DNA of 64,000 nt, taken from contig JBMNLH010000001.1 of the NCBI GenBank assembly GCA_050952625.1, positions 96,001-160,000 on the forward strand, given 5' to 3'. Position numbers and translations under genes: made by a program. Position 1 is the stretch's first letter; each line of letters begins with the position of its first letter. The notes under the pieces are model-generated. The model was not told the origin of the DNA. It saw nothing but the letters and a program-made list of their open reading frames with translations, and did not search any database. Below, one piece after another: positions 10,580 through 35,982 of the stretch. Origin of the DNA: Bacillota bacterium (GTDB taxonomy: Bacteria; Bacillota; Ch66; Ch109).

Positions 10580-10582
10580 CCA

Positions 10583-18777: not shown

Positions 18778-18813
18778 ATTATAACACTATTTAATCCCGC
18801 GAACAAATGTTTG
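18778..18813 (-). promoter_or_regulatory. SigA promoter of DUF763 overlapped by a LexA (Cheo) box
   Basis: Minus strand reads TTGTTC-N17-TATAAT with extended TG. CGAACAAATGTTTG at 18800-18813 is one mismatch from GAAC-N4-GTTC and covers the -35. Confidence 0.65.
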
Positions 18814-18862
18814 TTTGAGCAATTGGAAAAATTAAGTTAGAATTTGGAGTAACCAAGCATTA

Positions 18863-20335
18863 GTGAGAACAAAGACAAAACGGTCTTCAAGGCGAGGTAT
18901 CCTATGGCGAGTCAGGATGGAGGTACAGGAAAGAAGATACCGAATCTGGCGGTGGATTTTTCAGCAGCCAGACCACAGTACATCATATAAATGTTTAGCT
19001 GAACATTTTAAAGTCTCCGAGAAAACGGCGAAACTAGATTGTCTTGAACTGGTTAAAGAAGGCTATTTAAAACGTCATTGGGGCGGGGTAACCTTGACAG
19101 AAAAGGGACTTAAGGCCCTGTCCCAGGCAGGGTCGCTGGGACTTGATAGCACTATAAAACGAAAACATCTACGCCAGTTAGTGATCTTACGGGTTTTAGC
19201 CAGGAGACGAGCTAGCCGAAAGAAAAGTGAACGCACCCTAACCCTAAAAGACATTTCGCGGTTAGCTGGGTGGGACATAGATTGCCCTGAAGAAAAAGCT
19301 TATCCCAGTTTAGATAGTTTGAGTAATGATCTGGCCGAGTTAACCTCAATTGGTCTGGTTGAACGAACCGAACAGGGCTGGCAGTTGGGCAGCAGTTTAA
19401 TGCCGCCGCTTTATTTGAACGATGACCAAATGCTTCAGCTGCACCATTACTTAAATACTTTGCCGGCGTTTCTGCCGCTGGATGCGGTCCAGATGACCAG
19501 AATTAAGGATAAATTGCAAACAATCTTGCTGACAAAAGAAAATATGCTCCCAATTGATCAACTTAAACTGGCGACTAGGGAAGTGGTCCATGGTTATTCT
19601 TCACCACCACCGGCTGATGCTAACATTGTCCGATTGGTCGAGGAAGCTGTCGCCAAAGGGTTGGTCCTGGAACTGCTCTATCAAGGCAGAAAGATCAAGA
19701 TTAACCCAATCGGTTTAGTCTATCATTGGCGGCGGGGGTTCTGGTATATCATCTCCACCCCCAAAAAGCGGCAGCGAACCAACTTACAGATACTACGCCT
19801 GGATCGGGTGACTACCGCCTATAAAACTGAACAACAATTTACTCGTTTGCCGGCGCATAAAAGCAGGATATCGAACTTCCTGGCGGAATACTGGGGCGTT
19901 AGCAATGATCGAAGGTTCGAGGTGGAGATTCGTTTTTTTAATACCAAATGGAATGTTAACGCAGTCGAAAATATGTTGGGTGAAATTGCCCAACGGCAGT
20001 ACTGGGCCAAAACCTGCCGGACCGTACCGCAGCCCGATGGCTCGGTTGTCTTAAAGGATACCATTACTGGGCTGTCTGAGTTTACAGCCTGGTTAAGAAC
20101 CTACGGCGATGCAATCGAGATAATCTCCCCGGCTTGGCTGCGGGAAACACAAAAAGAAACCGCCCAAAAAATGCTAGCTGTCTATAAGAAGAAGACCGGC
20201 CAAATAAATAATCAGGCGGAAAAGCTATTTGACCAAGACATGATCAATAAAGCTGATAGGCCTGAGCCAAGAGATACGACTGAGCAGAGGGGAGCCGAAC
20301 AGAGAGACCGGAGCCGAGCAGAGAGATGGAGGTGA
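18863..20335 (+). CDS. WYL-domain transcriptional regulator 1 (HTH-wHTH-WYL-WCX; PafB/C-like)
   Basis: N-terminal DeoR-like HTH (LAEHFKVSEKTAKLD), INPIGLVY..GFWYII, ILRLDRV, and WCX-like FTAWLRTYGDAIEIISPAWLRE. Confidence 0.85.
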   Translation: MRTKTKRSSRRGILWRVRMEVQERRYRIWRWIFQQPDHSTSYKCLAEHFKVSEKTAKLDCLELVKEGYLKRHWGGVTLTEKGLKALSQAGSLGLDSTIKRKHLRQLVILRVLARRRASRKKSERTLTLKDISRLAGWDIDCPEEKAYPSLDSLSNDLAELTSIGLVERTEQGWQLGSSLMPPLYLNDDQMLQLHHYLNTLPAFLPLDAVQMTRIKDKLQTILLTKENMLPIDQLKLATREVVHGYSSPPPADANIVRLVEEAVAKGLVLELLYQGRKIKINPIGLVYHWRRGFWYIISTPKKRQRTNLQILRLDRVTTAYKTEQQFTRLPAHKSRISNFLAEYWGVSNDRRFEVEIRFFNTKWNVNAVENMLGEIAQRQYWAKTCRTVPQPDGSVVLKDTITGLSEFTAWLRTYGDAIEIISPAWLRETQKETAQKMLAVYKKKTGQINNQAEKLFDQDMINKADRPEPRDTTEQRGAEQRDRSRAERWR

Positions 20336-20362
20336 GCCGAACGGCACCGAGCAGGAACGGAG

Positions 20363-21511
20363 TTGGCGAGACAGACAGATAAGGCACTAACCAGGTTGAT
20401 TAGTTTGATCAAGATTCTCGAAAAACATCCAAAAGGCTTATCCGCTAATCAATTGGCCGACTTAACCGGATACCCGGCAGCGGTGATCCTGGATGACCTA
20501 AACTGGATCGTGCTGCAATCGGAATTTGCCGCGCACTACACTCTGTACGTTGATGATTTCCCGGAAGAAGAATTAGACATAGAGACAGGAAGCGAAGCTT
20601 TACCTGAAGCCTTACATATTGAAACAGACAGTATCAAGGCAATCAATAACAGTGTAAAACATAGTGAGCTAATACAAGCTGAGACAGATAATAGCGACGA
20701 AGCAGATTATTCAGTGACTGACCCGGATCTTAAGTGGCTGCTTGTGCAAAGGCAGACCTATACCCCCGGTTTAAATCTGTCTCTTGAGGAAGCGGTCCCT
20801 CTGTTATGGGCTTTAATGGAACACCCTCCAGGCCAAGAGCTGGCCTTATTCCAAAAAGAACTCAGGCGGCGAATTTTACCAGATCATATGGCTGAGCCAG
20901 CGGAAAACTGGATTCAGTTTATGGGAACCAAAGCGGGGATGGAAACACCCGACTGCCGTTACCTTGACCAATTGCGGGCGGCAATCTACCGGGAGCAGCT
21001 AATAGAGGTTAGATATTATGCTAAACAGTACCGGCAAACCAAACGGGCCCGCCTGCAACCGCTGGGGCTGGTGCTCTATAACGTAACCGGCACCTGGTAC
21101 CTGGTCGCCCGAGAATACCCCGGGAAAGATATGACGGCCCGGGAAATAATCTTGCATCTGGGGAGGCTTGAATCACTTCGGGTATTAGATCAAACGGCTA
21201 GCTACCCGGCTGATTTTTCGCTAACCGATTTTCTTAGAACTAGATGGGGAATGGATATGTCAGATCCAGTCAAGGTCAAGGCCAGAATCTATCCGCAGGC
21301 CAATGTTCTGGAGAAGATCAACCGGGAAATGATAAAGCGCGGCCTGCCGGCCCCTGCGGAACAGGCTGACGGAACCTATCTATGGGAAGGCGAAGTGCGG
21401 GGAATTAATAATTTTACCCGGTGGATTCTTGGCTTTGGCTCAGCCGTTGAAATCTTAGCCCCGGCCAAGGTCCGGCGCGAAGTTATTTCGATAATCCGCA
21501 ATATATGTTAA
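20363..21511 (+). CDS. WYL-domain transcriptional regulator 2 (PafB/C-like)
   Basis: HTH (RLISLIKIL..GLSANQLA..DDL), LQPLGLV..GTWYLVA, LHLGRL, WILGFGSAVEILAP. Confidence 0.9.
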   Translation: MARQTDKALTRLISLIKILEKHPKGLSANQLADLTGYPAAVILDDLNWIVLQSEFAAHYTLYVDDFPEEELDIETGSEALPEALHIETDSIKAINNSVKHSELIQAETDNSDEADYSVTDPDLKWLLVQRQTYTPGLNLSLEEAVPLLWALMEHPPGQELALFQKELRRRILPDHMAEPAENWIQFMGTKAGMETPDCRYLDQLRAAIYREQLIEVRYYAKQYRQTKRARLQPLGLVLYNVTGTWYLVAREYPGKDMTAREIILHLGRLESLRVLDQTASYPADFSLTDFLRTRWGMDMSDPVKVKARIYPQANVLEKINREMIKRGLPAPAEQADGTYLWEGEVRGINNFTRWILGFGSAVEILAPAKVRREVISIIRNIC

Positions 21512-21570
21512 GTCAACCCCTACTTAATTGAAGTGGGGGTATTTAGTTTGAAAGGCAAACATCGCTTTGT

Positions 21571-21689
21571 CCTCCCCTTCACCGCCTCACGTCTCAAATC
21601 TGACATCTCACTCCTTACTCCTCACTTATCACTTCTTACACCTTATACATCACCCCTTGCCTCGCTCCTCGCACCTCATCCCTCACCCC
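21571..21689. repeat. Degenerate heptamer tandem repeat (YCTCACN)n
   Basis: cctcacg tctcaaa tctgaca tctcact ccttact cctcact... show 7-nt periodicity. Confidence 0.7.
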
Positions 21690-21700
21690 GGTCGAATTTA

Positions 21701-21733
21701 GGAAACTTTTTTTCGGCTGAGTGAGTTTATAAT
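21701..21733 (+). promoter_or_regulatory. Conserved motif/promoter copy 1: GGAAACTTTTTTTCGG-N11-TATAAT
   Basis: The first 18 bp are identical to 31334-31351, with the same spacing to TATAAT and no TTGACA-like -35. Confidence 0.75.
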
Positions 21734-21794
21734 CAGGTTTAAACTGCAAGCCTGATTATATTAGGCTAGAGATTTTAGCGAGGTGAGGTTTTAA

Positions 21795-21977
21795 TTGGTG
21801 CGTAAAACTTGTCCTTATTGCGGCAAAGACTCTTTTAGTGCCTGCAGTACTGGCGAGTGGATCTGCCCGCATTGCTTTCGGGATATATCTAAGGTAGAAC
21901 CCAAACCAATCAATTACCCGATCCTGCAGGTAGTTCAGAACAATCATTGCGACAAGGACCGCGAAGTAGTTGATTAA
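21795..21977 (+). CDS. Small zinc-ribbon protein
   Basis: CPYC...WICPHC; RBS GAGGTGAGG; promoter directly upstream. Confidence 0.8.
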   Translation: MVRKTCPYCGKDSFSACSTGEWICPHCFRDISKVEPKPINYPILQVVQNNHCDKDREVVD

Positions 21978-22037
21978 AGCAGCGTAATTTGAAAAACAGA
22001 ATTAACCATTAGTTAAAATAATTCGTTGATAGTTGGA

Positions 22038-22062
22038 AGGAAAATGGATGATCGTGTCGAAA
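22038..22062 (+). promoter_or_regulatory. SigH-type promoter of the csm operon
   Basis: AGGA-aaatggatgatcgtgtc(17)-GAAA. Confidence 0.65.
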
Positions 22063-22102
22063 TTTCCATATAAATGCAGAACGGAGACGTTCAAATCCTA
22101 GT

Positions 22103-24517
22103 ATGTTAACCGTTAACCGTCAGGAGGTGAGAAAAATAGATTGGTTGTCTGACAATAATGAAACTAATTTTAAAAACCTATTATACGGGGCCCTTTTTCA
22201 TGATATCGGCAAGTTTTATCAGCGCACCCGTGATAAACAGGCGGAGAAGGAGATTTTCCAGGCTTATCAATGGTATGTAGAGAGCCTGGGTCGGGAATAC
22301 CTCTCCCACGAACAATGGAGTGCCTACTTCATCCGCACTGTTTTAAAAATGGAAGCAGCCGCAACCCTGGCTTTAAAGCACCACCACCCGGAAACTGACC
22401 TGGAATACCTGATCGCAATTGCCGACAAGTTGTCCGCAATGGAACGGGATGAAGAAGGCCCGGCCAGTAACGGTAAAGCCAATGTGGCAGCGGAACCCCT
22501 GTGTTCTGTTTTATCTTCTATCCGGCACATTAGAGATGATAGCGAGCCGGCCATTAGTTTTAAACGCTTGAAATTCGAACCCTTGGTTGATCCTTACCCG
22601 GTTTCCGATAAAAATGCAGCCCTTAGCCCGGGGGACTATCAGGCCTGGTGGGAGTGTTTCGCAACGGAAACCAAGGAGACTGTGAAGCAGCCGGTCGGTG
22701 CTGGCAAACAGTTTCACCGTCTATATCAGTTGCTTTACCAGTACACCCAGACAGTGCCTTCAGCCGCCTATTATTCCAAACCAACTATCTCCTTGTTTGA
22801 CCATTCCCGGACCACTGCAGCGATAGCCACGGCCCTTTACCGGCAGGGGCTTAGCCAGAATGACCTGGAAAGGTTGCACCGTCTTTTGGTGTATGGAGGC
22901 AAGAAGCGGGGAGCGGAAGAGCCGGTCCTGCTCTTGGTTGGCGGCGATATTTCGGGCATTCAGGACTTTGTGTTTGATGTGTCAGCCAAAGGAGCAGCCA
23001 AAGGCCTGCGGGGCCGGTCCTATTATCTGGCCACTCTTGGCGAGGCGATTGCTCAGTTTATCTTGACTCACGAGGGTCTTACCCCCTGTAACATTTTATA
23101 TTCCGGGGGCGGCCATTTCTATTTGATTCTGCCGGTTCGGGCCATGTCACGCTTAGCCGATTACCAAAAACAGATCGACCAGATCCTGTTTGCGGCCCAT
23201 CAAGGGAAGTTGTCGGTCATTCTAACCGGGATTCCCTTGACCCAGACTGATTTTTACCCGGAGAATTTCGGCGAAAAGTGGCAGCAGATCGGTCTAGCAG
23301 CCCAAAAAGCCAAGCAGCAGAAATTCCTCGAATTGATCCGGCAAAACCCGGAACAAGTGCTGGGTCCGAGTTATGAAGGCCAGCAGGTTTGCGTCATTTG
23401 CGGCAGTTCAATGCCAGTGGGAGAAGAAAAATGCTCTTTCTGCGAAAGCTTTGAACAGCTAGGCGATAACCTGGCGCGGGAGCGGACGTATCTTTTGGAG
23501 TACTACTTTAAGCCCCGTCCGGTAGACCAGATGTCCACAGTGGAAGATGTCTGGGCTGGTCTGGGATATCGGCTGGAGTTTTCCAACAAACCAGATGCCC
23601 AGGCCATTGTTTCGGTAATCAATCAACCAGCCTTGGCCGATAAAGCAGTTGATCGTGTGGTTTGGCTGGCGAATACTGCTCCGCATAACCCGGATGGCAG
23701 TCTGCTGACTTTTGAGGAGATCGCGGCGCAAAGTACCGGGGATCACATGTGGGGAGTCCTGCGCGGTGATGTGGATAATCTGGGCAGGGTTTTTCGGGAA
23801 GGCCTGGGCCAGGATCGCTCAATTTCCAAGATTGCCGCCCTCAGTCGAGAGATGTCCTTTTTCTTTAGCTTTATTTTTAATCAGGTCTGTCTGCGGTACC
23901 GGCAGTCGGTTTATGTCATTTATGCCGGGGGAGACGATTTCTTTTTGGTAGGTGCCTGGAGTGATTTGCCAACGATCGCGGCGGAAATCAACCGGGAATT
24001 TCACCGATACAGCTCCGGGAACCCTAACCTCACCCTATCTTGTGCGATCAGTATCGCATCGGGGATGACCTATCCTTTGTTTAAGGTGGCCCATACCGCC
24101 GGGGAACAACTGGACGAACAGGCCAAAACCACCCGAATGGTTAAAGGGGTTCTCCATCATAAAGATAGTGTATGTTTTCTAGGCCAGCCCTTTACCTGGG
24201 GAGAATTGGAGGAAGTCAGACAAGTCAAGAACTTGATCAAAAAAGCAATCCAAAATGAAGGGGTGGCTAAATCGCTCATCTTCTTGATTAATACAGCTTA
24301 CGCTGAGCAGCGGCAATACCAGCAGGGCAGATACCCGATCAATCGAATTTGGCGGCTGGTCTACGCCCTGACCAGACTGGCTGCGCGACATGGGCAAGCC
24401 GCTAACACCCTGAAAGAATTGGAAAGCCGGCTGTTAACCAGCCAGACAATGCTGTATGCCAACAGCCTTTACGCGGCCCGCTGGGCCGAAAAAGAATTGA
24501 GAACAAGGGGGGACTAA
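22103..24517 (+). CDS. cas10: Type III-A Cas10/Csm1 (HD nuclease + Palm cyclase)
   Basis: LFHDIGKF (HD), ISLFDHS, GDISGIQDF, LRGRSYY, CxxC..CxxC, RGDVDNLG, YAGGDDF. Confidence 0.97.
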   Translation: MLTVNRQEVRKIDWLSDNNETNFKNLLYGALFHDIGKFYQRTRDKQAEKEIFQAYQWYVESLGREYLSHEQWSAYFIRTVLKMEAAATLALKHHHPETDLEYLIAIADKLSAMERDEEGPASNGKANVAAEPLCSVLSSIRHIRDDSEPAISFKRLKFEPLVDPYPVSDKNAALSPGDYQAWWECFATETKETVKQPVGAGKQFHRLYQLLYQYTQTVPSAAYYSKPTISLFDHSRTTAAIATALYRQGLSQNDLERLHRLLVYGGKKRGAEEPVLLLVGGDISGIQDFVFDVSAKGAAKGLRGRSYYLATLGEAIAQFILTHEGLTPCNILYSGGGHFYLILPVRAMSRLADYQKQIDQILFAAHQGKLSVILTGIPLTQTDFYPENFGEKWQQIGLAAQKAKQQKFLELIRQNPEQVLGPSYEGQQVCVICGSSMPVGEEKCSFCESFEQLGDNLARERTYLLEYYFKPRPVDQMSTVEDVWAGLGYRLEFSNKPDAQAIVSVINQPALADKAVDRVVWLANTAPHNPDGSLLTFEEIAAQSTGDHMWGVLRGDVDNLGRVFREGLGQDRSISKIAALSREMSFFFSFIFNQVCLRYRQSVYVIYAGGDDFFLVGAWSDLPTIAAEINREFHRYSSGNPNLTLSCAISIASGMTYPLFKVAHTAGEQLDEQAKTTRMVKGVLHHKDSVCFLGQPFTWGELEEVRQVKNLIKKAIQNEGVAKSLIFLINTAYAEQRQYQQGRYPINRIWRLVYALTRLAARHGQAANTLKELESRLLTSQTMLYANSLYAARWAEKELRTRGD

Positions 24518-24518
24518 G

Positions 24519-24980
24519 GTGGGCATGAATCGACCACCCATTCCGGGGGGACCCGGGGGCAGACCAAGAAATACAAGCGGAGGTCGAAGTAACCTTGACA
24601 ATTCCGCGGTCCGGGATGCCCTGCAAAACGTCAGGCAACTGCTGGATAAAGACCAGGACCCGTACGGAGAGTTATTAATCCAAACAGCCGAGGCAATGGG
24701 CCGGCACCTAGCCAATAACCGGATGACCACGGCCCAGATCCGGAAACTCTTCTCCGAAGTGCGGAAACTTAATTTTAAAGACGACGGGCCTTACAAGACC
24801 AATATGATGCGGGCCAAACTGGCCTATACTGCCGGCCGTCACCGCGAAGTTGGTGACCTCCAGCAGGTATTAGACAAAGCCTTAATCGAAGTGGGGACCA
24901 GCGAAGAAAAATTTAACCGTTTTGAAAACTTTTTTGAAGCCATTGTGGCCTACCATAAGAAATACGGCGGTAAAGATTAA
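24519..24980 (+). CDS. csm2: Csm2 small subunit
   Basis: TTAQIRKLF, KLAYTAGR and FFEAIVAYHK motifs. Confidence 0.95.
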   Translation: MGMNRPPIPGGPGGRPRNTSGGRSNLDNSAVRDALQNVRQLLDKDQDPYGELLIQTAEAMGRHLANNRMTTAQIRKLFSEVRKLNFKDDGPYKTNMMRAKLAYTAGRHREVGDLQQVLDKALIEVGTSEEKFNRFENFFEAIVAYHKKYGGKD

Positions 24981-25025
24981 GAACGAAGAATTAGGGGTTA
25001 AGAAGACAGGGAGGAGGCTTAAGCG

Positions 25026-25859
25026 GTGACTGAACTAATAATGGAAGGCAAATTAGTCATGACTGGCCTGATTAAGGCCTGCACCGGACTGCATATCGGC
25101 GGGTCCCCGACTGGTTTAGATATTGGCGGCGTGGATAAGTCTGTCATTAAGGACCCAGGAGGTAAGCCCTATATCCCCGGCAGTTCGCTCAAGGGGAAAA
25201 TGCGCAGTCTGCTGGAAAAAAGTGAAGGACTGGTTACTTCGTCCAGCCTGGTAGTTACTAAAAAAGGCGGGATCCACGACACCATTCGGATGCACATGTG
25301 CAATTCGCCAACTTGTGCTGTTTGCAATATTTTCGGCCGGACCAACGGGCGAAAAAAATTAGCTGACGAATCAGATCTAAATATTGAGAACGGGACCCTG
25401 CCGCGTTTGATAGTGCGGGATGCGTATCTGGTTGAGGACAGTATCCCGCGGGAGATGAAAGAACACTTGGATTTGGAATGGACCGAGGTCAAGTTTGAAA
25501 ACTCAATTGACCGTATTACATCTGCCGCTAACCCCCGACAGACTGAACGGGTGCCGCGGGGAGCAGAGTTTAGTTTTCAAATGGTCTATACGGTTTATAC
25601 TCCGGCAGACCGAGATGACTTCAGCAAGGTGACCAAGGCCTTACGGCTGTTGGAGGATGACTACCTGGGCGGGGCCGGCAGCCGGGGTTACGGACAAATC
25701 CTTTTTCATAACCTGAAGCTATATTGGAATTCAGTCAATGACTATGAAACCGGGAATATTAATCTAGCGACCAAAGAGCCCTGGCTAGCGGCGGATACCC
25801 TCAGCCAGTTGATGGAACAAATGGTTGAGGCCGGGGGCGTGGCCGGGCTTAAAGAATAG
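25026..25859 (+). CDS. csm3: Csm3 (Cas7) backbone RNase
   Basis: TGLHIGG, GGVD (catalytic Asp), YIPGSSLKGKMRSLLE, ANPRQTERVP, YLGGAGSRGYG. Confidence 0.95.
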   Translation: MTELIMEGKLVMTGLIKACTGLHIGGSPTGLDIGGVDKSVIKDPGGKPYIPGSSLKGKMRSLLEKSEGLVTSSSLVVTKKGGIHDTIRMHMCNSPTCAVCNIFGRTNGRKKLADESDLNIENGTLPRLIVRDAYLVEDSIPREMKEHLDLEWTEVKFENSIDRITSAANPRQTERVPRGAEFSFQMVYTVYTPADRDDFSKVTKALRLLEDDYLGGAGSRGYGQILFHNLKLYWNSVNDYETGNINLATKEPWLAADTLSQLMEQMVEAGGVAGLKE

Positions 25860-25871
25860 CGGGGCGATAGC

Positions 25872-26864
25872 ATGAAAGCACACATCGTGAAAATGCATTT
25901 TACAGCGCCCCTGCACTTAGGCAGCAAGGAAGCAATGCTGGAGAACACCCTGCAGCATATCCCATCCGATGTTGTTTTTTCCGCGCTGTGCAACGTGTAT
26001 CGCCACCTCTACGGCAAACAAGCTTTAGAGTCGCTGCTGGCGGAACAAGCACAGTCGGCCGGCTTCCTATTGTCATCAGCCTTTCCTTATTACCGGGATG
26101 CCTATTTTTTGCCCCGGCCTTTAAACTTTGACTTAACCCGCTATGGCTTTGAACCGAAAAAGGCCAAACGGGTGAAATATCTGGAATATAACCTGATGCA
26201 CCGGGTGTTGGCGGGTAAGTTTCAAGCCGCGGATTTGGAGAATTATGTCGCTGAGGCGGTGCAGGGCCTGCTTTTGCCCCGGGAGTATCAGGGTCTGAAA
26301 ATCTGCCGCGAGGTTGAAATACCGCGGGTCGCCCTGGACAGCCTGACTGCTGCGTCAAATATCTATTACTTTAACCAGGTGACCTTTACCCGGGAGGCCG
26401 GTCTTTACTGTCTGGTCCGGTGTGCGCCGGAATTATGGGGCCGGCTCAGGACCTGTTTTCGTGTCTTGGGCGATGAAGGAATCGGCGGGGACCGGACTTC
26501 CGGCAAGGGAGGATTTACCGTCGAATTTCCAGGCGAACTGGCTTTTCCGCAACTGGGTCAGCCGGCCAGCCATGTCTTATTGTCCCTGTATTATCCCAGT
26601 TCTGATGAGGCGGGAAGCCTGGAGGCTGAGTATTCGTTAATCAAACGTTCTGGTTATGTCTACTCTTCAGAGGAAACCGGCCTGAGAAGGAAAAGCGTCA
26701 CCATGCTGGCCGAAGGGGCAGTAGTCTACGCTGATTCTCCTCCAGTTGGGAAGCTCGTGGACCTGACACCGCCCGGGTTTGACAAGCACAAAGTCTGGCG
26801 CAATGGCCTGGCCTTCACGGTGGCGTCAGCCCTGGGGAAAGGAGGAGGGGAAGATGCCGGGTAA
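25872..26864 (+). CDS. csm4: Csm4 (Cas5)
   Basis: PLHLG, PSDVVFSAL, LSSAFPY, GIGGDRTSGKG, MLAEGAV. Confidence 0.95.
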   Translation: MKAHIVKMHFTAPLHLGSKEAMLENTLQHIPSDVVFSALCNVYRHLYGKQALESLLAEQAQSAGFLLSSAFPYYRDAYFLPRPLNFDLTRYGFEPKKAKRVKYLEYNLMHRVLAGKFQAADLENYVAEAVQGLLLPREYQGLKICREVEIPRVALDSLTAASNIYYFNQVTFTREAGLYCLVRCAPELWGRLRTCFRVLGDEGIGGDRTSGKGGFTVEFPGELAFPQLGQPASHVLLSLYYPSSDEAGSLEAEYSLIKRSGYVYSSEETGLRRKSVTMLAEGAVVYADSPPVGKLVDLTPPGFDKHKVWRNGLAFTVASALGKGGGEDAG

Positions 26865-28005
26865 ACTCAAGTATCGCCTGGAGGTCTTGACCCCGGTGCA
26901 TATTGGCAGCGGGCAAAAACTGCTGCCGGCGGATTATATTCTTGATCCCGAGACGCAGGAGGTTATTCGGGTCGACCTAAATGCCCTGTTTAGTGACCGC
27001 TCTTTTCCGGTCGGACGTTTTATCGCGGCGATTAAAGAGCCTGGCTTTAGTCTGCAGCGGAAATTTTATCAGTCAGGGCGCATGTATCCCCTGTACCGGC
27101 TGGCAGCAGCCGATACGCTAAACGAGCTTAACCAGCACATTGGCCGCCCGGCCGGGGCCATTCTCGAACACATAAAGGAGGCCGGCCAGCCCTATCTCCC
27201 GGGGAGTTCGCTGAAAGGAGCCTTGCGTAGTCTGGTCGTTCGCTGCTTGATTGCGCAAAACCCTGATTCTTACGAAGAAAGGCTCAGACAAAACATGCAA
27301 GGAGACAGGAGAAGCCGAAAGGAGTTTTTCTCCACTTCCGCTGAAGAACGCGTAGTCGGCAACCCCAATTTTAGTCTATTTAAGTCCCTGCAGGTTAGCG
27401 ACAGCTCAACGTTAAACCCACAGCAGCTTCAATTGGGCTGTACGCGGGTCCTTTCCTTAACCCGACGTGGGTTCCGCTGGAAGGACCTGGGTCAGAACAC
27501 GAACGTGGATCGTCCAGAGATGGCAACGCCGATTTTTTTTGAAGCCATTCCGGCTGGGACCACCCTAACCGGCACCTTAAAGGTAGATGAGACCTTGCTC
27601 AAAGGAGAAATGGCGCAATTGCTCAGGTACCCGCCGGCCAGCAGAACCGCCCTGCTGGAACTAACGCGGATCTGCCGGGAAGGCAGCCGGGAACTGTTGC
27701 GCAATGAAGAGGAGTTTTTCACGAAAATTTCCTTTGCCCCGGGTGTTCAGGCGGTCAAAGGTATACTGTCGATTGAGCAGGACTGCAACGCTAATCAGAT
27801 GATTATCCCCTTGGCCTGGGGGACTGGTTATCTGGCCAAAGCGATGGGCTGGAAGATTGATCCCGATTTGTTTCGGGAGGTGCGAGACCGATTCAGACTG
27901 GGCCGGCCGGGGTTTGAATTTCCAAAATCTCGAAAGATTATTTTCACGCAGGGTAAACCGTCTGGTTTAATGGGCTGGGTTAAGATCACCCTGGGAGAGG
28001 AATAA
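26854..28005 (+). CDS. csm5: Csm5 (Cas7)
   Basis: LTPVHIGSG, PYLPGSSLKGALR, LQVSDS, FPKSR...MGWV. Confidence 0.95.
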   Translation: MPGKLKYRLEVLTPVHIGSGQKLLPADYILDPETQEVIRVDLNALFSDRSFPVGRFIAAIKEPGFSLQRKFYQSGRMYPLYRLAAADTLNELNQHIGRPAGAILEHIKEAGQPYLPGSSLKGALRSLVVRCLIAQNPDSYEERLRQNMQGDRRSRKEFFSTSAEERVVGNPNFSLFKSLQVSDSSTLNPQQLQLGCTRVLSLTRRGFRWKDLGQNTNVDRPEMATPIFFEAIPAGTTLTGTLKVDETLLKGEMAQLLRYPPASRTALLELTRICREGSRELLRNEEEFFTKISFAPGVQAVKGILSIEQDCNANQMIIPLAWGTGYLAKAMGWKIDPDLFREVRDRFRLGRPGFEFPKSRKIIFTQGKPSGLMGWVKITLGEE

Positions 28006-28008
28006 CTG

Positions 28009-28937
28009 ATGCTCAAGGTAATTAAAGTTAATATCGAACTCAAACCCGTCGAACCTATTGAACTGCCAGTTTATAAAGGTTCCACCTTTCGGGGGGATTG
28101 GGCCAGGTACTTAAAGAGATGGTCTGTATCCGGCGGGACCGGCAGTGCCGTCGGTGTTCCATAAGTAATAAATGCAGCTATACCTTCGTCTTTGAAACCG
28201 CAACTTATTATGCCGGGCAGCCTCGGGATTCCGGGGGTGTGCCGCAGCCGTTTGTCTTGGAACCACCTCTGGAGGAAGAAACCAGATACGAAGTTGGCCA
28301 AACAATCAATTTCAGTTTAGTTTTGATGGGGCGGGGGGTAGATTATCTGCCCTACTTCCTGTCCGCCTTTGATTTTATGGGGGAGCGGGGAATCGGACGC
28401 CGGCGGGGTCGGTTTGAGTTGTTCCGCGTGACTGACAGCTATTCGGGAGAGGTAGTCTACGACCGGGAAAGCGGTGAGGTTAACTCGCTGTTGACCCCCC
28501 GAAACCTTTCAGACCTGCTTCTGAAAAGCGAGGCGTGCCAAAGCTGTTGCCTGACTCTGCTCACCCCGCTTCGTTTAAAACAAGGGGGCAGCCTGACCGA
28601 ACAATTCAACTTTGAATTACTCATTCGAGCTATTCTAAGGAGAATAACCTATCTCAACCAGTATTTCGGTGATCAAGAGATAGAACTGGATTATAAACAG
28701 CTTATCGATCAGGCCAAAGAGATCAAAACCAGGGCCAGAAATATAGCCTGGCGGGACTGGGAAAGGTATTCAAGCCGGCAGGATACCCGGATGAAACTGG
28801 GCGGAATAGTTGGCGACATAGAGTTCGCCGGAGAAATTACCCCTTTTTGGCCTTTTCTGTTAATGGGGCAGGAAATCCACATTGGCAAGAATACTACCTT
28901 TGGCCTGGGAAAATATTTAGTGGAACGATCAGGCTGA
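28009..28937 (+). CDS. cas6: Cas6 crRNA processing endoribonuclease; -1 frameshift in the G6 run at 28091-28096
   Basis: ATG 28009 gives MLKVIKVNIELKPVEPIELPVYKGSTFRG. One more G joins it to GLGQVLK...CRRC...PQPFV...HIGKNTTFGLG (Cas6 G-rich loop). Confidence 0.9.
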
Positions 28938-28966
28938 GAGATTGAGAATGTTGAGTAGATGTTGGA

Positions 28967-28991
28967 AGGATAAGTAATATTTATGTCGAAT
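28967..28991 (+). promoter_or_regulatory. SigH-type promoter upstream of the array 1 leader
   Basis: AGGA-taagtaatatttatgtc(17)-GAAT. Confidence 0.6.
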
Positions 28992-29188
28992 TCTAATATT
29001 ATCTATTTTATTTTACCAGTTTCATATTCGATAGGTTTTGCCTATCGTAATTGATAGATAAGTAAGTGAGCCTTTTGGCCTGATTTTATAACGTTGCCCT
29101 GCACGAACGAATAGTAATCAAAATTGCAAATTCGACTCCATATAATATAAGCAATTTATATTTATTGAAGTAATGCACTTATTATTAT

Positions 29189-29398
29189 CGCTAACCTGTT
29201 TAAGGCTAAAAATCTCTGGGAGGTTAGCGATAATGAGTAATTCAAAGAAATATGCTGAAATAAAGAGCAAGGAGGCAATAATTTTATTTGGGATGAACTG
29301 GAAAAGAGGTGATTTTCAAGTCTTTGTAGCAGGTTTTTTTGCGGTTAGCGGAATGGCACCTCGCAGCCCAGTATTATCAAGGCCTCCGGACAGCCGCT
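29189..29398 (+). promoter_or_regulatory. CRISPR leader 1
   Basis: CGCTAACCT, AGGTTAGCG and GGTTAGCG motifs at -210, -178 and -56; the proximal ~55 bp is nearly identical to leader 2. Confidence 0.85.
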
Positions 29399-31225
29399 GT
29401 GAGAATGATTGACCCGCTCAGAGGGGATTGCGACGATGTACTTCTCGAAATTATCATCGGCTCGCTTGTGCCAGTGGTGAGAATGATTGACCCGCTCAGA
29501 GGGGATTGCGACGGCATTAACCTCCTCCTCCTCCTCTTCTAATTCAGTTAATCTGTGAGAATGATTGACCCGCTCAGAGGGGATTGCGACCTGTCCCCGT
29601 AAATACGAGGACTTCTCTCAGATACCTGAGGTGAGAATGATTGACCCGCTCAGAGGGGATTGCGACAATTCCTCCTTGTTTTTTTTCGGTTGGTTTAGAG
29701 ATTTCGTGAGAATGATTGACCCGCTCAGAGGGGATTGCGACTGTCACCTTTGTCAGCGTCCCCGCCATCATTGCCGGAGCCGCGTGAGAATGATTGACCC
29801 GCTCAGAGGGGATTGCGACACCAGATGCGGCCAGCATGGATCCACCGCTTGCTAAAACGTGAGAATGATTGACCCGCTCAGAGGGGATTGCGACTTTTCC
29901 TGTAATTCTGGCAATGATAAGATGTATCCAACTGTGAGAATCATTGACCCGATCAGAGGGGATTGCGACAAATAGCAATTAGAATTATTACCATGAAATT
30001 TCGGATCTGGGTGAGAATCATTGACCCGATCAGAGGGGATTGCGACTTACTAGAATAAACACTTCTCCGCGCGATTTTTTTCCTGGTGAGAATCATTGAC
30101 CCGATCAGAGGGGATTGCGACACTGGAGAGGAAGAAATAATGCTCATAATGGCATTGACTTGTGAGAATCATTGACCCGATCAGAGGGGATTGCGACCCA
30201 CTGCCGACCGGCAGCAAGCAGATTTTCATCCCCGTGAGAATCATTGACCCGATCAGAGGGGATTGCGACAAGGATTAAAGAATATAGCTCCTACAACTTT
30301 GTTGTGTGTGAGAATCATTGACCCGATCAGAGGGGATTGCGACGATATTTTTACGATTAGTCCTATCCCCTGCAGCATCGGTGAGAATCATTGACCCGAT
30401 CAGAGGGGATTGCGACGACTGCCCGCCGACCGCACTCGATGGCCGAAACCATTTTGTGAGAATCATTGACCCGATCAGAGGGGATTGCGACTTCTCCTTC
30501 TTTTTTGGTTTCGTTTCGTTTTCGACGGCTGGGTGAGAATCATTGACCCGATCAGAGGGGATTGCGACCAAAAGCAAGCTTACGACGGGATATGTTTTAG
30601 CTAGTGTGAGAATCATTGACCCGATCAGAGGGGATTGCGACAACTGAAGGTTTACGTTTTTCTTGTTATCCCAGCTAATTGTGAGAATCATTGACCCGAT
30701 CAGAGGGGATTGCGACCTATTGTTGCAGCACCACCACAACGCTCACAAATAAAAAGTGAGAATCATTGACCCGATCAGAGGGGATTGCGACCTAATGCCA
30801 TAACTTCTCAACTCATCAATTGATTTCGGTGAGAATCATTGACCCGATCAGAGGGGATTGCGACATATTTTTCCTCCCATGGCTGGAACGGGTCAGAACG
30901 GTGTGAGAATCATTGACCCGATCAGAGGGGATTGCGACACACAAACTCTGGAACCCTCTCCCCGTCCTGCCTCTTTGCGTGAGAATCATTGACCCGATCA
31001 GAGGGGATTGCGACCTTGAAACTCATCGCACATCGCTCACTTTCTCTTATTTGTGAGAATCATTGACCCGATCAGAGGGGATTGCGACTTTTAGAGCAGG
31101 TCGCTTAGCAGGATTTTTCTCCTTTTTTGTGAGAATCATTGACCCGATCAGAGGGGATTGCGACACTCACTGTTCCCTTTTTATGCCCCATGATGATATC
31201 CCAAGGGGAGAATCATTGACCAGAT
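29399..31225 (+). CRISPR. CRISPR array 1: 24 full 36-bp repeats plus a degenerate terminal repeat; spacers 36-42 bp
   Basis: Repeats 1-7 are GTGAGAATGATTGACCCGCTCAGAGGGGATTGCGAC; repeats 8-24 are GTGAGAATCATTGACCCGATCAGAGGGGATTGCGAC. Orientation is from the leader and the ATTGCGAC 3' handle. Confidence 0.98.
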
Positions 31226-31293
31226 TCGCCGAATTATTTACTTTACCCAAAACAACTAGGTGGGTTAGATGGCAAGCTAATTCAGGTTAATGG

Positions 31294-31320
31294 CAGCCTC
31301 AGTTATTGGGGCTTTTTTTA
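31294..31320 (+). terminator. Intrinsic terminator after array 1
   Basis: AGCCTCAG-TTA-TTGGGGCT followed by a T-tract. Confidence 0.6.
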
Positions 31321-31333
31321 TTGCCCCCTATCT

Positions 31334-31366
31334 GGAAACTTTTTTTCGGCTAGTTGAATTTATAAT
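31334..31366 (+). promoter_or_regulatory. Conserved motif/promoter copy 2: GGAAACTTTTTTTCGG-N11-TATAAT
   Basis: Matches 21701-21733. Confidence 0.75.
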
Positions 31367-31423
31367 TTATTAGGGTGATCGGTTAACTTGTCATTGCAAC
31401 TTCTATCAAGGAGGTTAAAAGAA

Positions 31424-32284
31424 ATGGGTTTTCTAAAGGATTTAGGCAGTCTCACCGGCAGCATTGCAGGGGTGGTTTTGTCTACTCCAGTGACTTTGGC
31501 TGGTGGTTTTTTTGATAGTGATACCTTAAAGGAGGCGGCTCGCGGGATACACTATGTTACCGCCAGTACTGGTTCCTTAATCGGTCAAACCGTCAGTGGC
31601 GGTCTGGATGTGGTGGAAGGAGTTTTAACTAGGAATGACAGGATAAGTCAGCAGGGTCTTGATGAGGTTGGTGATTCTTTTAAAACTGTTATCAATGGGG
31701 TAATTGGTGGTACCGCTAGTCTCTTGGATAATAGTGGTAAAGTAATTACTGGGGTATTTGAGGGTGATACGGCCACCGCAATGCAAGGAGCTAAAAATCT
31801 TGCTAAATTTGGCATAATTACGGCCATCGGAATTGGGCTGGCTGATGCGATTGGGATTGTTGATGTAAATGGGAATGAGACGGTAGCCCACGCTCAAGTA
31901 CCTAGTAGTTTTAGTTATGATCAAGATGATGCTGTTTTGGATTATTCAGATATTGGTGAACCGCATGGGCTAGTACCGGACGTTCCGGTTGATGACATTC
32001 CTGGAGTTGATAATGGTATGGCTCATCCATCCGCTACGGAGGTATTAATTGATCTGGGTTGCCAGGATGGAACGGAGCATGTCGTGGATCCGCCCCGGGA
32101 TCCGGGGATGGTCCAGGCATTTTTAACGGAGCATGGATATACTGAGACTCCTGATGGTTACGAGGTCCATCACATTATTCCTCTGTCCGAAGGTGGAGCC
32201 GACCATCCGGCTAACATGGTATTAGTTTTGGAAGAAGAACATGATCAGATTACGGCGGCCCACCAGAGGTTTTATCAATGGTAA
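31424..32284 (+). CDS. HNH endonuclease with Gly-rich amphipathic/TM N-terminus
   Basis: C-terminal YEVHHIIPLSEGGADHPANMV....EEH; hydrophobic FGIITAIGIGLADAIGIV segment; RBS AAGGAGG before ATG 31424. Confidence 0.85.
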   Translation: MGFLKDLGSLTGSIAGVVLSTPVTLAGGFFDSDTLKEAARGIHYVTASTGSLIGQTVSGGLDVVEGVLTRNDRISQQGLDEVGDSFKTVINGVIGGTASLLDNSGKVITGVFEGDTATAMQGAKNLAKFGIITAIGIGLADAIGIVDVNGNETVAHAQVPSSFSYDQDDAVLDYSDIGEPHGLVPDVPVDDIPGVDNGMAHPSATEVLIDLGCQDGTEHVVDPPRDPGMVQAFLTEHGYTETPDGYEVHHIIPLSEGGADHPANMVLVLEEEHDQITAAHQRFYQW

Positions 32285-32379
32285 TTAAGGTTTAACTTGA
32301 GATGGTTTCTAGTTATATTTAAAGCATACTAGTTAAGTCGGTTTAAAAAGTTAACCATTGATATTCTTTAAAAATTAGA

Positions 32380-32404
32380 AGGGAAATGGATGAATATGTC
32401 GAAT
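32380..32404 (+). promoter_or_regulatory. SigH-type promoter of the csx1 genes
   Basis: AGGG-aaatggatgaatatgtc(17)-GAAT; paralogous to the cas10 promoter. Confidence 0.65.
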
Positions 32405-32493
32405 TTCCAGTATACAGTATTGATATGGTCGAATAACTAGTAGGTATTGCGAAACAACTTAATTATTGGGATTTAGCGTAGAACGGAGGCCTA

Positions 32494-34206
32494 ATGATAA
32501 TGGAGAAAAAACCGTGGAAGCTAATTACCTTTATCGGGATGGGTTATTATCAGCCGACGAATTATAAGATTAAAGGAGTAGAATATCCTGACACCAAATA
32601 TTTTCCCTTAGCTGCGGCTAAATGGTTGATTGAGCAAAGGGGAGATCAAGGAAAAATTGTAGTACTGGTCACTAAAGAAGTTATTGAAGATACAAAAAAC
32701 CAGAATTTACAGGGATTTAAGGAAGCCTTATTACTTGACCCACAATTTAAACATCTAAATGTGCAGCAAGAAATATTTCCTTGGAAAGAAGAAAGCGAGC
32801 TCTGGGAAATATTTAAGATAATCGTTAATTCGGTAGAGAATGGCGAAACCGTATATTTTGATATTACTCATTCCTTTAGATTTATCCCGTCCATCGTTTT
32901 GTTGGCTTTGATTTATTTAAAAGAGGTTAAAAGGATAGACCTTCAGTCGGTGTTCTACGGAAACTTTGAGGCAACGAAATCAGGCTTTGACTATGCACCC
33001 GTATTTGATATTCTCCCTTTTGTCGATCTCGCGGAATGGCTGTTTGGGGCGCGAGTATTTAAAGAATTTGGGTTAGGCAGTATTTTAGGTGACAAAATTA
33101 AGACGGTGCAGGCTGAAATACGGAGAAAAAGCAAAGAAGGGCCGGAGAAGTTAATTAAGCTGGGGACCCGCTTGAATAATCTTTCAAGTGCTTTAGCTGT
33201 GGGTAATGCCATAGGTGTGGGTGAAAACGCCCTGAAATTGACTAATTTTATAAATCAAAATAAAGATAAAATAGAAACGGAAGTAAGGGAGTATGTCCCG
33301 CCATTGGTGCCGTTAATAGAGGGTATTGTGGATGAATATGCTCAATTTGGGCTTGAGGATATTCAGTTAAATATGAAGGAATTAGAGAGAGAAGAAAGTT
33401 TAATTCGCTGGTATCTAGAAAAAAAAGATATCGGAAAAGCCCTGCAACTGTTTAGGGAATTTATAGTAAATACTGTTTTATATATTAATGCTGGGTCGAC
33501 TCGTGAGTGGCTAAAACTGGATAATAGATTGCCCGTAGAACGGCAATTACATAATTTAAAGGTCGCTAATACAGAGGTTGGTCGCCTCTGGGATGAAATT
33601 GCATTCGAAAGAAATTCAATTGCCCATTGTGGTTTTAATAATCAAGACAAATTTAATCCGAATAAAGAGTATCGAAATTTACAGTTGGTTACCAGGCCTG
33701 ACCATAATCTTGAGGAATGGATTTCTAGAATTGCTTCAGAGGTACAAGCTTTAGCCTTCGATGAAGGATCGGTCCTGCTAACACCATTGGGGCTGTCGAA
33801 AGGGTTATTATTTACCTTATGGCAGAGATATCCTGATATTGAGCGGACCATAATTCTCACATCGGCAGAGACGGTCAACAGTATCGAAGAAGTGAAAAAG
33901 ATAACCGGATACTCAGGGGAGATCAAGATCTGCCTAGTTCAAGATCCATTTACTGCTTTTGACCAGATTGAAAATAAGTGGAAGGAAATAAAAGATTTTC
34001 TTAAAAGTAATATTATTGTTAATATCACTGGCGGTACCACAGCACTTCAATATTTGGTGGAAAAAATACAACAAAGGCTTATTAACCAGGATGTGAGAAT
34101 AACTACGGTTGCGGCTATTGATCGAAGGCCCGTGCAGGAACAAAAAGAAAACCCATGGGTAGCCGGACAGATAATTAAATTAAAGGAAGACCATCAGGAA
34201 GATTAG
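32494..34206 (+). CDS. csx1: Csx1-like CARF-HEPN ribonuclease with an additional C-terminal CARF-like domain
   Basis: LITFIG..Y..TNY, FDITHSFRFIP (DxTHG/S motif), HEPN RNSIAH, then TPLGLSKG...VNITGG. Confidence 0.88.
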   Translation: MIMEKKPWKLITFIGMGYYQPTNYKIKGVEYPDTKYFPLAAAKWLIEQRGDQGKIVVLVTKEVIEDTKNQNLQGFKEALLLDPQFKHLNVQQEIFPWKEESELWEIFKIIVNSVENGETVYFDITHSFRFIPSIVLLALIYLKEVKRIDLQSVFYGNFEATKSGFDYAPVFDILPFVDLAEWLFGARVFKEFGLGSILGDKIKTVQAEIRRKSKEGPEKLIKLGTRLNNLSSALAVGNAIGVGENALKLTNFINQNKDKIETEVREYVPPLVPLIEGIVDEYAQFGLEDIQLNMKELEREESLIRWYLEKKDIGKALQLFREFIVNTVLYINAGSTREWLKLDNRLPVERQLHNLKVANTEVGRLWDEIAFERNSIAHCGFNNQDKFNPNKEYRNLQLVTRPDHNLEEWISRIASEVQALAFDEGSVLLTPLGLSKGLLFTLWQRYPDIERTIILTSAETVNSIEEVKKITGYSGEIKICLVQDPFTAFDQIENKWKEIKDFLKSNIIVNITGGTTALQYLVEKIQQRLINQDVRITTVAAIDRRPVQEQKENPWVAGQIIKLKEDHQED

Positions 34207-34272
34207 GTGACCTGAAATTCTAAAAGTGATCAAAGCAGGCAAAATTTTTTTGTCTAGATTATGAGGTGGAAT

Positions 34273-35547
34273 GTGGCTAGAGTTCTCATTTCAGGCATAG
34301 GTACTGGCCAGCTTAATGGTCAGGATGATTATGGGCTTGAACACCGAAGAAAATACCGAACAGCAACTTATCTTATTGATCAGAAAAAATATGAAACAGA
34401 GTTTATAGCCAGTGCATTAATAGAACATTACCAAATTGAAAAGGTGTTTCTTGTTGGTACCGTAAAATCAATGTGGGAAAATGTATATGAGTATTTTGCT
34501 GGTGCTAACCTGGATGAAGAATATTATTTCCATTTGGTTGAAGCAATTGAAAAATCAAATTATTTAGATCAATGCTTTGACATGGACTATCTTGGCAACG
34601 TGAACGAAGCAATGAACTGTTTTCTTAAGTCGAGTGACTCACGTTGTTTTTTAATTAAGTACGGCTTGAATGAAGAGGAAATTATCTATAATTTCGGGAT
34701 ATTTCAGGATATCGCGGAGTTGTTGGAAAGTGGAGACGAGGTGTTTCTGGACATAACTCATTCTTTTCGGTCATTGGCTCTATTTCAATACACAATGGTC
34801 AATTACATAGACAATTTGTCACACAAAAACATTGAGGTTAAGGGCGTGTTTTACGGCATGCTCGAAACTGCTCGGGAGATGCAGGGCATTACACCGGTGG
34901 TTAATCTTAAAACAGTGTATGAATTAAGCAATTGGGTAAAAGCCATTCATGAGTTAAAGAGTTACGGAAATGGTTATATAGTATCGGATTTATTAAGAGA
35001 TTATGATAAACGACTAGCTAACAAGATCAAAATGTTTTCGGACCTGGTTAATTTAAACTACCTGGCTGGGGTAAAAAACCAAGTGGACAATCTGTCGAGA
35101 TTAAACTTTGAACACATAAATGGGCCGGGCAGTATGGTGGCAGAGTATCTAAATCGTTATGTTAACCGGTTCGCGTCAATCAGAAATGAGTGGGAGTTCC
35201 AGTTTGAAATGGCAAAGTGGTATTTTGAAAATAAACGGTATGCTACGGGTTATATTGCTTTGATAGAATCGATATTAACTCGAATTTGCGAATTGTTAGC
35301 TTTAGATCCTAAAATTAAAAACAATAGAGATGAAGCGAAAAATATTCTCTATAATAACCGATCAGGTGCTAATTTGAGAGAGGTCAGGTATAAGTTCGAT
35401 GCGATTAATAGAATCCGTAAGAATGTGGCGCATGTCCTTGATGATCGGGACGAAAGGAATTATTTGACGGATGTGCGGCAGTCAGCTTATTACATCCGGA
35501 GTTTAGAAGGATTATTAAAGCGTCTGTCGGCTGATGATTTAAGGTGA
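34273..35547 (+). CDS. csx1: Second Csx1-like CARF-HEPN ribonuclease (TM1812 type)
   Basis: VLISGIG, YRTATY, GTVKSMW, LDITHSFRSL, YGMLE, HEPN RKNVAH. Confidence 0.88.
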   Translation: MARVLISGIGTGQLNGQDDYGLEHRRKYRTATYLIDQKKYETEFIASALIEHYQIEKVFLVGTVKSMWENVYEYFAGANLDEEYYFHLVEAIEKSNYLDQCFDMDYLGNVNEAMNCFLKSSDSRCFLIKYGLNEEEIIYNFGIFQDIAELLESGDEVFLDITHSFRSLALFQYTMVNYIDNLSHKNIEVKGVFYGMLETAREMQGITPVVNLKTVYELSNWVKAIHELKSYGNGYIVSDLLRDYDKRLANKIKMFSDLVNLNYLAGVKNQVDNLSRLNFEHINGPGSMVAEYLNRYVNRFASIRNEWEFQFEMAKWYFENKRYATGYIALIESILTRICELLALDPKIKNNRDEAKNILYNNRSGANLREVRYKFDAINRIRKNVAHVLDDRDERNYLTDVRQSAYYIRSLEGLLKRLSADDLR

Positions 35548-35879
35548 GCCTTTATGATCTGATTCAAGCTAGATCCAAAACAGGTGGCTTTTCTGACCTT
35601 ACCCGGTAAGGTTGTATTGCATGGCAACCTAACGGGGTTATTTTTTGAAAAAGGAGTGGCTTAAATTTTTTCATTCATTGAAGCTTTCCTTTTGCCCGTT
35701 TGTAGACTTTTCTGCTAGTTGAACTATATCTACTTGTTTGCTCTTTATAAATGTTAATAAATCTTGACGAATGATGTCGAATTGTTTTTTTGAAATAGAA
35801 TCTGCTATAAATTAAATCCTAGTAATATAGTCTACTTTAAATTAGCGAGATATTGATTATGTTAATAGACTATTAAAAG

Positions 35880-35905
35880 AGGAAAATCAATAAATAATGT
35901 CGAAA
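35880..35905 (+). promoter_or_regulatory. SigH-type promoter of the cmr operon
   Basis: AGGA-N18-GAAA with TGTC before the -10. Confidence 0.55.
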
Positions 35906-35982
35906 TACCATAATGTAGTATGCAATTCTGCGGTATTACGTAATTTTTTTTTCTCGGTAAAGGAGTACAAAGGGGTGTTGGC

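Follow-up and report, generated by a model that had tools for sequence, protein, structure and literature searches.

Little is known about how type III CRISPR (short palindromic repeats, clustered and regularly interspaced) islands, with their accessory nucleases, come to be switched on. The question is raised here by an island of a Bacillota bacterium (NCBI GenBank assembly GCA_050952625.1, contig JBMNLH010000001.1, positions 96,001 to 160,000), a stretch of 64,000 nucleotides that we call the window and number from its first letter (G000:C1:96001-160000), in which two tandem genes for WYL-domain proteins head two sets of type III genes and a short repeated element, motif A, precedes two small genes, one for a Zn-ribbon protein and one for an HNH nuclease. 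We tentatively propose, from proximity and geometry, that the WYL pair may control the motif A promoters, most likely as an activator, a reading to which we give somewhat less than an even chance. The pair is the likeliest controller because it is the only DNA-binding transcription regulator within the island and because the element is asymmetric and lies where the activator PafBC touches DNA.

Motif A and the promoters it marks

The 18-mer GGAAACTTTTTTTCGGCT occurs at 21701-21718 and 31334-31351, exactly and on the plus strand both times, in agreement with a preliminary description of this DNA. When up to three mismatches are allowed, the window still holds only these two matches (0.16 expected; two or more in 2 of 100 shuffles), and they are the only exact copies in the whole genome of 2,909,876 bases. 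Matches at up to three mismatches number seven across the genome, five of them with three mismatches each, and a reversed control pattern gave eight; one near-copy, at C1:196006 with three mismatches, was taken as unrelated, being without a TATAAT and followed by a GTCGAAT-type box. Viral contigs yielded no match to the full 31-position motif A pattern and a single match to the 18-mer, with no TATAAT behind it and in an apparently coding context.

Copies 1 and 2 share more than the 18-mer, namely a block of 33 bp (29/33 identical) laid out as GGAAAC-T7-CGGCT-N7-TTTATAAT and ending in the last of these, beyond which the likeness stops sharply and the flanks are unrelated. The four differences all fall in the 15 bp on the -10 side of the block, its upstream 18 bp being invariant, a pattern that argues for selection on that upstream portion. 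In both copies 11 nt separate TTTCGG from TATAAT and no canonical -35 is found, again as first described; TTTCGG-N11-TATAAT occurs three times genome-wide, the third time at C3:120169 on the minus strand, where the stretch examined held no open reading frame (ORF) of at least 70 aa downstream on that strand. A third copy had been placed at about 35704, and its resemblance is real, since it has an exact 10-mer, GCTAGTTGAA, in common with copy 2 (two in the window, 0.10 expected), but TCGG is replaced by a 3-nt gap and TATAAT is absent. The features concerned are as follows.

21701..21733, plus strand: motif A copy 1, promoter-like, without a -35 (18-mer scan, alignment)
31334..31366, plus strand: motif A copy 2 (18-mer scan, alignment)
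35704..35735, plus strand: degenerate third copy of motif A, without TCGG and without TATAAT
21516..21540, plus strand: terminator-like hairpin after WYL gene 2, upstream of copy 1 (terminator/promoter scan)
31295..31313, plus strand: terminator-like hairpin after CRISPR array 1, upstream of copy 2 (terminator/promoter scan)
21728..21760: inverted repeat of 10 bp, perfect (TATAATCAGG / CCTGATTATA), over the -10 of copy 1
21795..21977, plus strand: small Zn-ribbon ORF (CPYC...CPHC) of 60 codons, start probably GTG 21798
31424..32284, plus strand: HNH-domain protein of 286 aa (Pfam HNH, C-terminal), start placed at ATG 31424

These copies could be relics of a short promoter cassette duplicated within the island, acting as weak constitutive promoters with no dedicated regulator. 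A single island holds all three in a span of 14 kb, the third is visibly decaying, and no conservation was found outside the lineage (10 related loci and genomes G001-G005), all of which such a history would fit. The sharp edge of the 33-bp block, with no flanking homology, and the perfect upkeep of its upstream 18 bp, set against four changes in 15 bp near the -10, are not what it leads one to expect, and we regard it as improbable.

Judged from sequence, the two motif A sites look like separately started promoters without a -35. In the sigma-70 scan neither site passed and no -35 hexamer was found, the hexamers 16-18 nt upstream of TATAAT agreeing with TTGACA at 0-1 of 6 positions (manual count), so the promoters should be weak unaided. 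Start codons with a GAGG or AGGAGG ribosome-binding site follow 65 nt (copy 1) and 58 nt (copy 2) downstream. With TATAAT set at -12 to -7, the invariant CGG occupies -26 to -24 and the 18-bp element, which is non-palindromic, about -39 to -22. PafB is described as contacting the zone from -23 to -28, at promoters that lack a -35 but have a canonical -10 (PMC8635444).

The same promoters might instead be repressed, by the WYL pair or by another factor, from an operator formed by the 18-bp element or by the inverted repeat of copy 1. Such a role has precedent in the CRISPR-linked WYL proteins Sll7009, Sll7062 and Sll7078, described as repressors (PMC6789036), and the perfect 10-bp repeat that covers the copy 1 -10 (fold z-score -2.58 with the -10 counted in) would suit an operator. 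Copy 2, however, has no inverted repeat over its -10, the element that the two sites share is non-palindromic, and the promoters, for want of a -35, are already expected to be weak unaided, so that we consider repression quite unlikely.

The genes behind the two sites are those first named: their coordinates place copy 1 before the Zn-ribbon gene, which in turn lies upstream of cas10 (22103), and copy 2 before the HNH gene. The Zn-ribbon gene was considered as a CRISPR-specific gene and rejected as such, because of 401 genomes sampled from the phylum 99 contain its family, and what lies upstream varies among them. Of the membrane-associated nuclease that had been suggested behind copy 2, the HNH domain stands, and a protein collection's 286-aa HNH record spans 96% of the ORF, and a homolog with 88% identity is encoded on a 3.9-kb contig (P0153); what can be offered for membrane association is two moderately hydrophobic segments in a Gly-rich N-terminal part. 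Between the WYL terminator and copy 1 lies a tract of 131 nt (21560-21690) with 61 C and 9 G on the plus strand.

A two-module WYL regulator

The tandem genes at the head of the island do encode winged helix-turn-helix (wHTH)-WYL-WCX proteins. Pfam finds HTH_DeoR and WCX in gene 1 and HTH, WYL and WCX in gene 2, and both proteins align across WYL-WCX to structures of DriD, an activator of Caulobacter switched by single-stranded DNA (ssDNA), with expectation values (E) of 5e-5 and 1e-8.

18863..20335, plus strand: WYL gene 1 (HTH_DeoR, WYL, WCX, 45-aa tail; Pfam, DriD alignment)
20363..21511, plus strand: WYL gene 2 (HTH, acidic insert, WYL, WCX; Pfam, DriD alignment)
20333..20335, plus strand: TGA that splits the same-frame WYL modules, a place where the frame is open in G001

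Gene 1 probably starts at ATG 18917, according to an ortholog alignment and a comparison with the start region of G001. Both genes lie in one reading frame, interrupted by the lone TGA within a repetitive linker, and in the same-genus genome G001, 94.8% identical to the window over 2836 nt of this region, the two modules form a single open frame of 871 codons. Contigs of one RNA-library study likewise have the fused, G001-type linker; the library contigs compared (four runs from three studies, over 18400-29300) are fragmentary, hold no transcript starts and may include DNA. The 45-aa tail of gene 1 acts as the linker in the fused form, and in distant genomes, where the modules are separate genes, an ortholog alignment shows gene 1 stopping where that tail starts.

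A fold model of the WYL-WCX parts of both chains gave a pairing score of 0.75, against 0.00 for the best of three controls, with at least 85% contact agreement between runs, partner pLDDT of at least 83 and contacts mainly in the WCX parts. The mark used for pairing is reached by 58 of 80 solved complexes and by 2 of 110 mismatched pairs, and because WYL dimers have already been solved a pass may reflect likeness to them. The model supports pairing of the two modules through their WYL-WCX parts and is also compatible with homodimers. The shared frame, the fusion in the sister genome and the pairing model together support a view of the two genes as one two-module unit; since the 18-bp element is non-palindromic, a heterodimer fits it better than a homodimer of the DriD type.

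Seven DriD residues have been described as important for ssDNA binding (PMC9186387); gene 1 keeps four of these seven positions and gene 2 three, with one further Lys for Arg. Neither motif A nor the promoter of the WYL genes shows a palindrome of the DriD type (CGAC-N7-GTCG), which is described as often present in the regulator's own promoter (PMC10853764).

A LexA-type operator at the WYL promoter

A possible route from DNA damage to the regulator is suggested by the promoter of the WYL genes, which has two parts.

18800..18813: box CGAACAAATGTTTG of the LexA type (Cheo-like), directly adjoining the WYL promoter's -35
18815..18843, plus strand: sigma-70-like WYL promoter, TTGAGC-17-TAGAAT, matching at 9 of 12 positions

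The 12-mer GAACAAATGTT[TC] has five copies in the genome, three of which stand upstream of lexA, recA and WYL gene 1, the other two being in a repeated intergenic element on C5 and inside a gene, and it is kept in G001. The assignment of the WYL box to the LexA type rests on the genome's own lexA and recA sites, seen against the Gram-positive LexA consensus. On this evidence the WYL pair appears to be under LexA control, and the box provides a hint of a link to DNA damage that is independent of motif A.

Other GAAC-N4-GTTC sites, on C3 and C5, lend the LexA reading no further support; no repair gene adjoins them, and those on C5 belong to the repeated intergenic element. That element (G000:C5:48887 and 60395) carries a palindrome similar to a LexA box, CAGAACAWATGTTCTG, with similar flanks, near genes for YvrJ, a glycosyltransferase and AbiE.

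The type III core and its SigH-type promoters

The island had been described as a dual type III locus, and Pfam and two CRISPR arrays bear this out. Its order is the III-A set (Cas10 with HD domain, Csm2, Csm4_C, RAMPs and Cas6 by Pfam), array 1, the HNH gene, two CARF genes and the III-B set (Cmr2_N, Cmr3, Cmr5, RAMPs and Cas6), with array 2 completing it.

22103..28937, plus strand: type III-A genes cas10 (HD), csm2, csm3-like RAMP, csm4, csm5-like RAMP and cas6 (Pfam)
29399..31240, plus strand: CRISPR array 1, 24 repeats listed and a degenerate last repeat
32494..35547, plus strand: two CARF proteins, TIGR02221 (cas_TM1812), with a DxTHG motif (family match)
35983..43464, plus strand: type III-B genes cmr1 to cmr6 and cas6 (Pfam)
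22032..22072, plus strand: predicted SigH-type promoter before cas10 (GAAGGAAAA-N11-GTCGAAATT)
28961..28995, plus strand: predicted SigH-type promoter in the leader of array 1
32374..32414, plus strand: predicted SigH-type promoter before the 570-aa CARF gene, in a region conserved in G001
35880..35915, plus strand: predicted SigH-type promoter before cmr1

The element GA(A/G)GGA-N13-TGTCGAA, in fixed register, stands upstream of cas10, the 570-aa CARF gene and cmr1 and in the array-1 leader. Its TGTCGAA part ('motif B') was considered as a PafBC-like box and rejected, since the fixed register with GAAGGA and the abundance genome-wide are those of a SigH-type promoter. Scanned as AGGAwww-Nx-RnnGAAT, the class has 75 sites genome-wide at x=11 and 32 at x=12, compared with 10-22 at other spacers, while the reversed pattern, used as a control, stayed at 7-17. 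Among the genome's products is a SigH ortholog (TIGR02859, 374 bits with the cut-off at 294.8), and mapped SigH promoters of C. difficile are described as having the same form, one of them ending in GCGAATTTATAATA (PMC7438776). Type III immunity may thus be tied to a transition-phase sigma factor. Induction of Csm and Csx1 by read-through from motif A, as once envisaged, becomes unnecessary, because cas10, the CARF gene, cmr1 and the array-1 leader have SigH-type promoters of their own.

These promoters also bring in the main rival to control by the WYL pair, namely that motif A is itself an alternative-sigma promoter, either a SigH-type variant or one read by a factor that recognizes GGAAAC at the -35, independently of the WYL proteins, with TATAAT merely the A/T-rich tail of a GAAT-type -10. 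Copy 2 can be written as TGGAAAC-N13-GTTGAATTT and copy 1 as AGGAAAC-N13-AGTGAGTTT, in a genome that has the sigma factor and uses the class heavily, with five N11 sites in the island, and the ending of the mapped C. difficile promoter lends this some plausibility. The spacer of motif A is 13, however, whereas the enriched class has 11 or 12; the 22 N13 sites look coding, with a gene start downstream at 3 of 22 against 24 of 75 for N11; and there is one core mismatch per copy (copy 1 has GAGT, copy 2 TGGA). The SigH-type pattern (AGGAwww, spacer 11-12, RnnGAAT) accordingly describes five other promoters and not motif A, and the 12 nt of identical spacer (T7CGGCT) are more than a sigma factor alone would need. 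We consider an alternative-sigma promoter unlikely.

Several observations concern the remainder of the island and its surroundings. Each CARF protein has an R-x4-H stretch, which may be of the HEPN type. In array 1 (29399-31165), repeats 1-7 read ...AATGATTGACCCGCTC... and the others ...AATCATTGACCCGATC...; array 2 has a third repeat variant, ...CCGATTAG.... An AAA/VWA operon at 13962 is preceded by the same SigH-type element. Upstream of the WYL genes, a DUF763 gene (17483-18584, minus strand) appears as two ORFs of 111 aa (profile 1-106) and 247 aa (117-319), possibly through a frameshift or as a broken gene. Downstream of the cmr genes, at 44069-45689, are two ORFs of 229 and 323 aa (the latter o323) with no family matches; their homologs, at 51% identity for the 229-aa ORF, flank a fused 943-aa double-WYL gene in G340 (L147, G340:C20) and are also listed at L137 (G374:C12). 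An Rfam scan of the window gave no match in the WYL/CRISPR region; elsewhere it found a Moco/tungsten riboswitch (49478-49611) and a tRNA (61259-61330), both on the minus strand.

Related WYL-pair loci

Few close relatives came to light: homologs of WYL gene 2 numbered one by a word-based search and nine at E of at most 1e-30 by an exhaustive search, several of the nine being 700-900 aa long and, to go by length, possibly fused forms. Two other Bacillota genomes, G284 and a Desulfoscipio metagenome-assembled genome (MAG), repeat the succession of WYL pair, Zn-ribbon gene and type III genes. The G284 locus also has cmr genes, an array and a homolog of the 570-aa CARF protein (CARF570), and an extra ORF of 144 aa with no NCBIfam match lies there between the WYL pair and the Zn-ribbon gene (L128 10338-10772). 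In a metagenome contig the pair has a CARF gene on one side and, on the other, an array with type I genes. WYL pairs thus adjoin cas genes in the window, G284, the Desulfoscipio MAG, this contig and G098, among others. With the queries used, a CARF, Cas or o323-like gene was found within the stretch fetched at 9 of 24 tandem-WYL loci and at none of the other 15; 20 of the 24 are best adjacent-match pairs, and at least six other pairs or fusions were left out. At L061 (Desulfotruncus arcticus, 9402-11573) a homologous WYL pair, apparently broken into four ORFs, lies beside a CARF570-like fragment, and no cas genes were detected in the 21.5 kb fetched.

The expectation that the motif would accompany homologs of the WYL pair found no support in the loci examined. 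In 10 related WYL-pair loci the best match to motif A covers 19-22 of 33 positions, which is what shuffled sequence gives (19-23/33). This absence weighs little against control by the pair, because identity between those regulators and the ones in the window is only about 25-35%. The same holds for the upstream regions of the Zn-ribbon gene, which differ in G284 and Desulfoscipio, that of G284 having an ordinary TTGACA. G001 has no 18-mer at up to two mismatches and no likeness to either motif-bearing stretch, a further point on that side; this genome, however, is 78% complete, with contigs that end precisely where the comparison would matter, some 100 nt beyond the stop codon of the WYL frame and shortly before the HNH gene. 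In a scan of the family-level genomes G001-G005, four 18-mer matches at up to two mismatches turned up in G002 and G005 and were rejected, none having a -10 behind it and all being GC-rich and apparently coding.

Other points weigh on the same side. Proximity is what ties motif A to the WYL pair, at just two sites in one genome, and the element can be half read as a SigH-type promoter. DriD (E 1e-8) is a nearer relative of the WYL proteins than PafBC is (E 0.07), and between CGG and the -10 motif A has 2 nt more than the PafBC consensus. As for the direction of control, the defence-linked Sll7009 mentioned above is one of several WYL proteins described as repressors.

Comparison with known WYL regulators

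Much of the background to this locus is already known: PafBC and DriD are WYL activators linked to DNA damage, DdaA is one that acts on CRISPR-Cas, and HTH-WYL proteins occur as type III accessories. PafBC comes to mind first, and had been the model of the preliminary description. It too consists of two paralogous HTH-WYL-WCX modules, tandem or naturally fused (PMC6789036), its targets are described as promoters that lack a -35 but have a canonical -10, together with a specific element near -26 (PMC8635444), a sequence pattern that the two sites here fit, and it shares the link to DNA damage. Paired modules, promoter-like sites without a -35 and a CGG within the PafB zone fit the analogy, whereas at the level of protein sequence the match to the PafBC structure 6sj9 (E 0.07) is not significant, covers the HTH only and ranks below the DriD-type chains. 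The setting differs as well, being a CRISPR island of a Bacillota host with no proteasome (paf) context, the element here is GGAAAC-T7-CGGCT, and the PafBC regulon is described as including canonical SOS-response genes (PMC8635444), whereas the WYL pair is apparently itself under LexA. Natural fusions are described for actinobacterial PafB and PafC only, as far as the account in PMC6789036 extends.

DriD is the best solved relative of both WYL proteins across WYL-WCX, and its ssDNA-contact set is partly kept, but it is described as binding its palindrome as a homodimer (PMC10853764), unlike the two dissimilar modules and non-palindromic element found here. DdaA of Moraxellaceae resembles the proposed regulator in being a WYL activator whose motif is reported in promoters of CRISPR-Cas and restriction-modification genes, with the expression of these systems and immunity raised after DNA damage (PMC12392091). 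The same account presents it as a global regulator that has replaced SOS, with a type I-F target, whereas the genome studied here keeps lexA and LexA-type boxes and the candidate regulon consists of two accessory genes of a type III island. HTH-WYL genes beside type III genes have been listed before (Shah et al. 2018, cluster 36; Makarova et al. 2014; PMC6546367), in the accounts available as single HTH-WYL or CARF-WYL genes recorded by neighbourhood and with no tandem pair, motif or LexA box; in the available text of PMC4012209 the terms 'tandem' and 'two WYL' do not occur. The literature searched yielded no description of a WYL pair, whether tandem or fused, within a CRISPR island, nor of the motif of such a pair or its control by LexA.

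A candidate circuit and its meaning

If the WYL pair does control motif A, the island could work as follows. Motif A would mark two promoters whose -10 is perfect but which have no -35, so that the housekeeping RNA polymerase alone uses them poorly; one would start the small unit of the Zn-ribbon gene and the other that of the HNH nuclease gene. With its modules joined at the WCX domains, the WYL regulator would bind the non-palindromic element asymmetrically and, as an activator, replace the -35 contact in the manner of PafBC. Two tiers of control could be superimposed: DNA damage would lift LexA repression and so raise the amount of regulator, and a nucleic-acid ligand at the WYL domains would switch it on. 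The core csm and cmr operons, the CARF gene and the array leader would be driven separately by SigH-type promoters. What the sequences show is the motif and its uniqueness, the anatomy of the promoters, the fusion, the 12-mer common to the lexA, recA and WYL sites, and the recurring gene order; we infer the binding of the regulator to motif A, the direction of control, the ligand and the binding of LexA. For the original suggestion of a nucleic-acid-sensing WYL pair that activates on damage, the LexA-type box and the promoter geometry speak in favour, while the link to the motif is one of proximity. Taken whole, a Bacillota counterpart of PafBC in the form of a LexA-held WYL heterodimer, split or fused and loaded with its ligand, that adapts sigma-A to accessory-gene promoters without a -35 while core Csm and Cmr depend on SigH, is an outcome that we would not count on, and its chances are rather low.

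The system is small, with two promoters, two regulator genes and one operator, and the occurrence of split and fused forms in one genus constitutes a natural experiment on two-chain versus one-chain regulators. Should the proposed circuit prove true, sigma adaptation by a two-module WYL factor would reach beyond actinobacteria, and a defence island would be wired to both the SOS repressor and a transition-phase sigma factor, in a two-tier circuit that would couple SOS and growth phase to CRISPR immunity.

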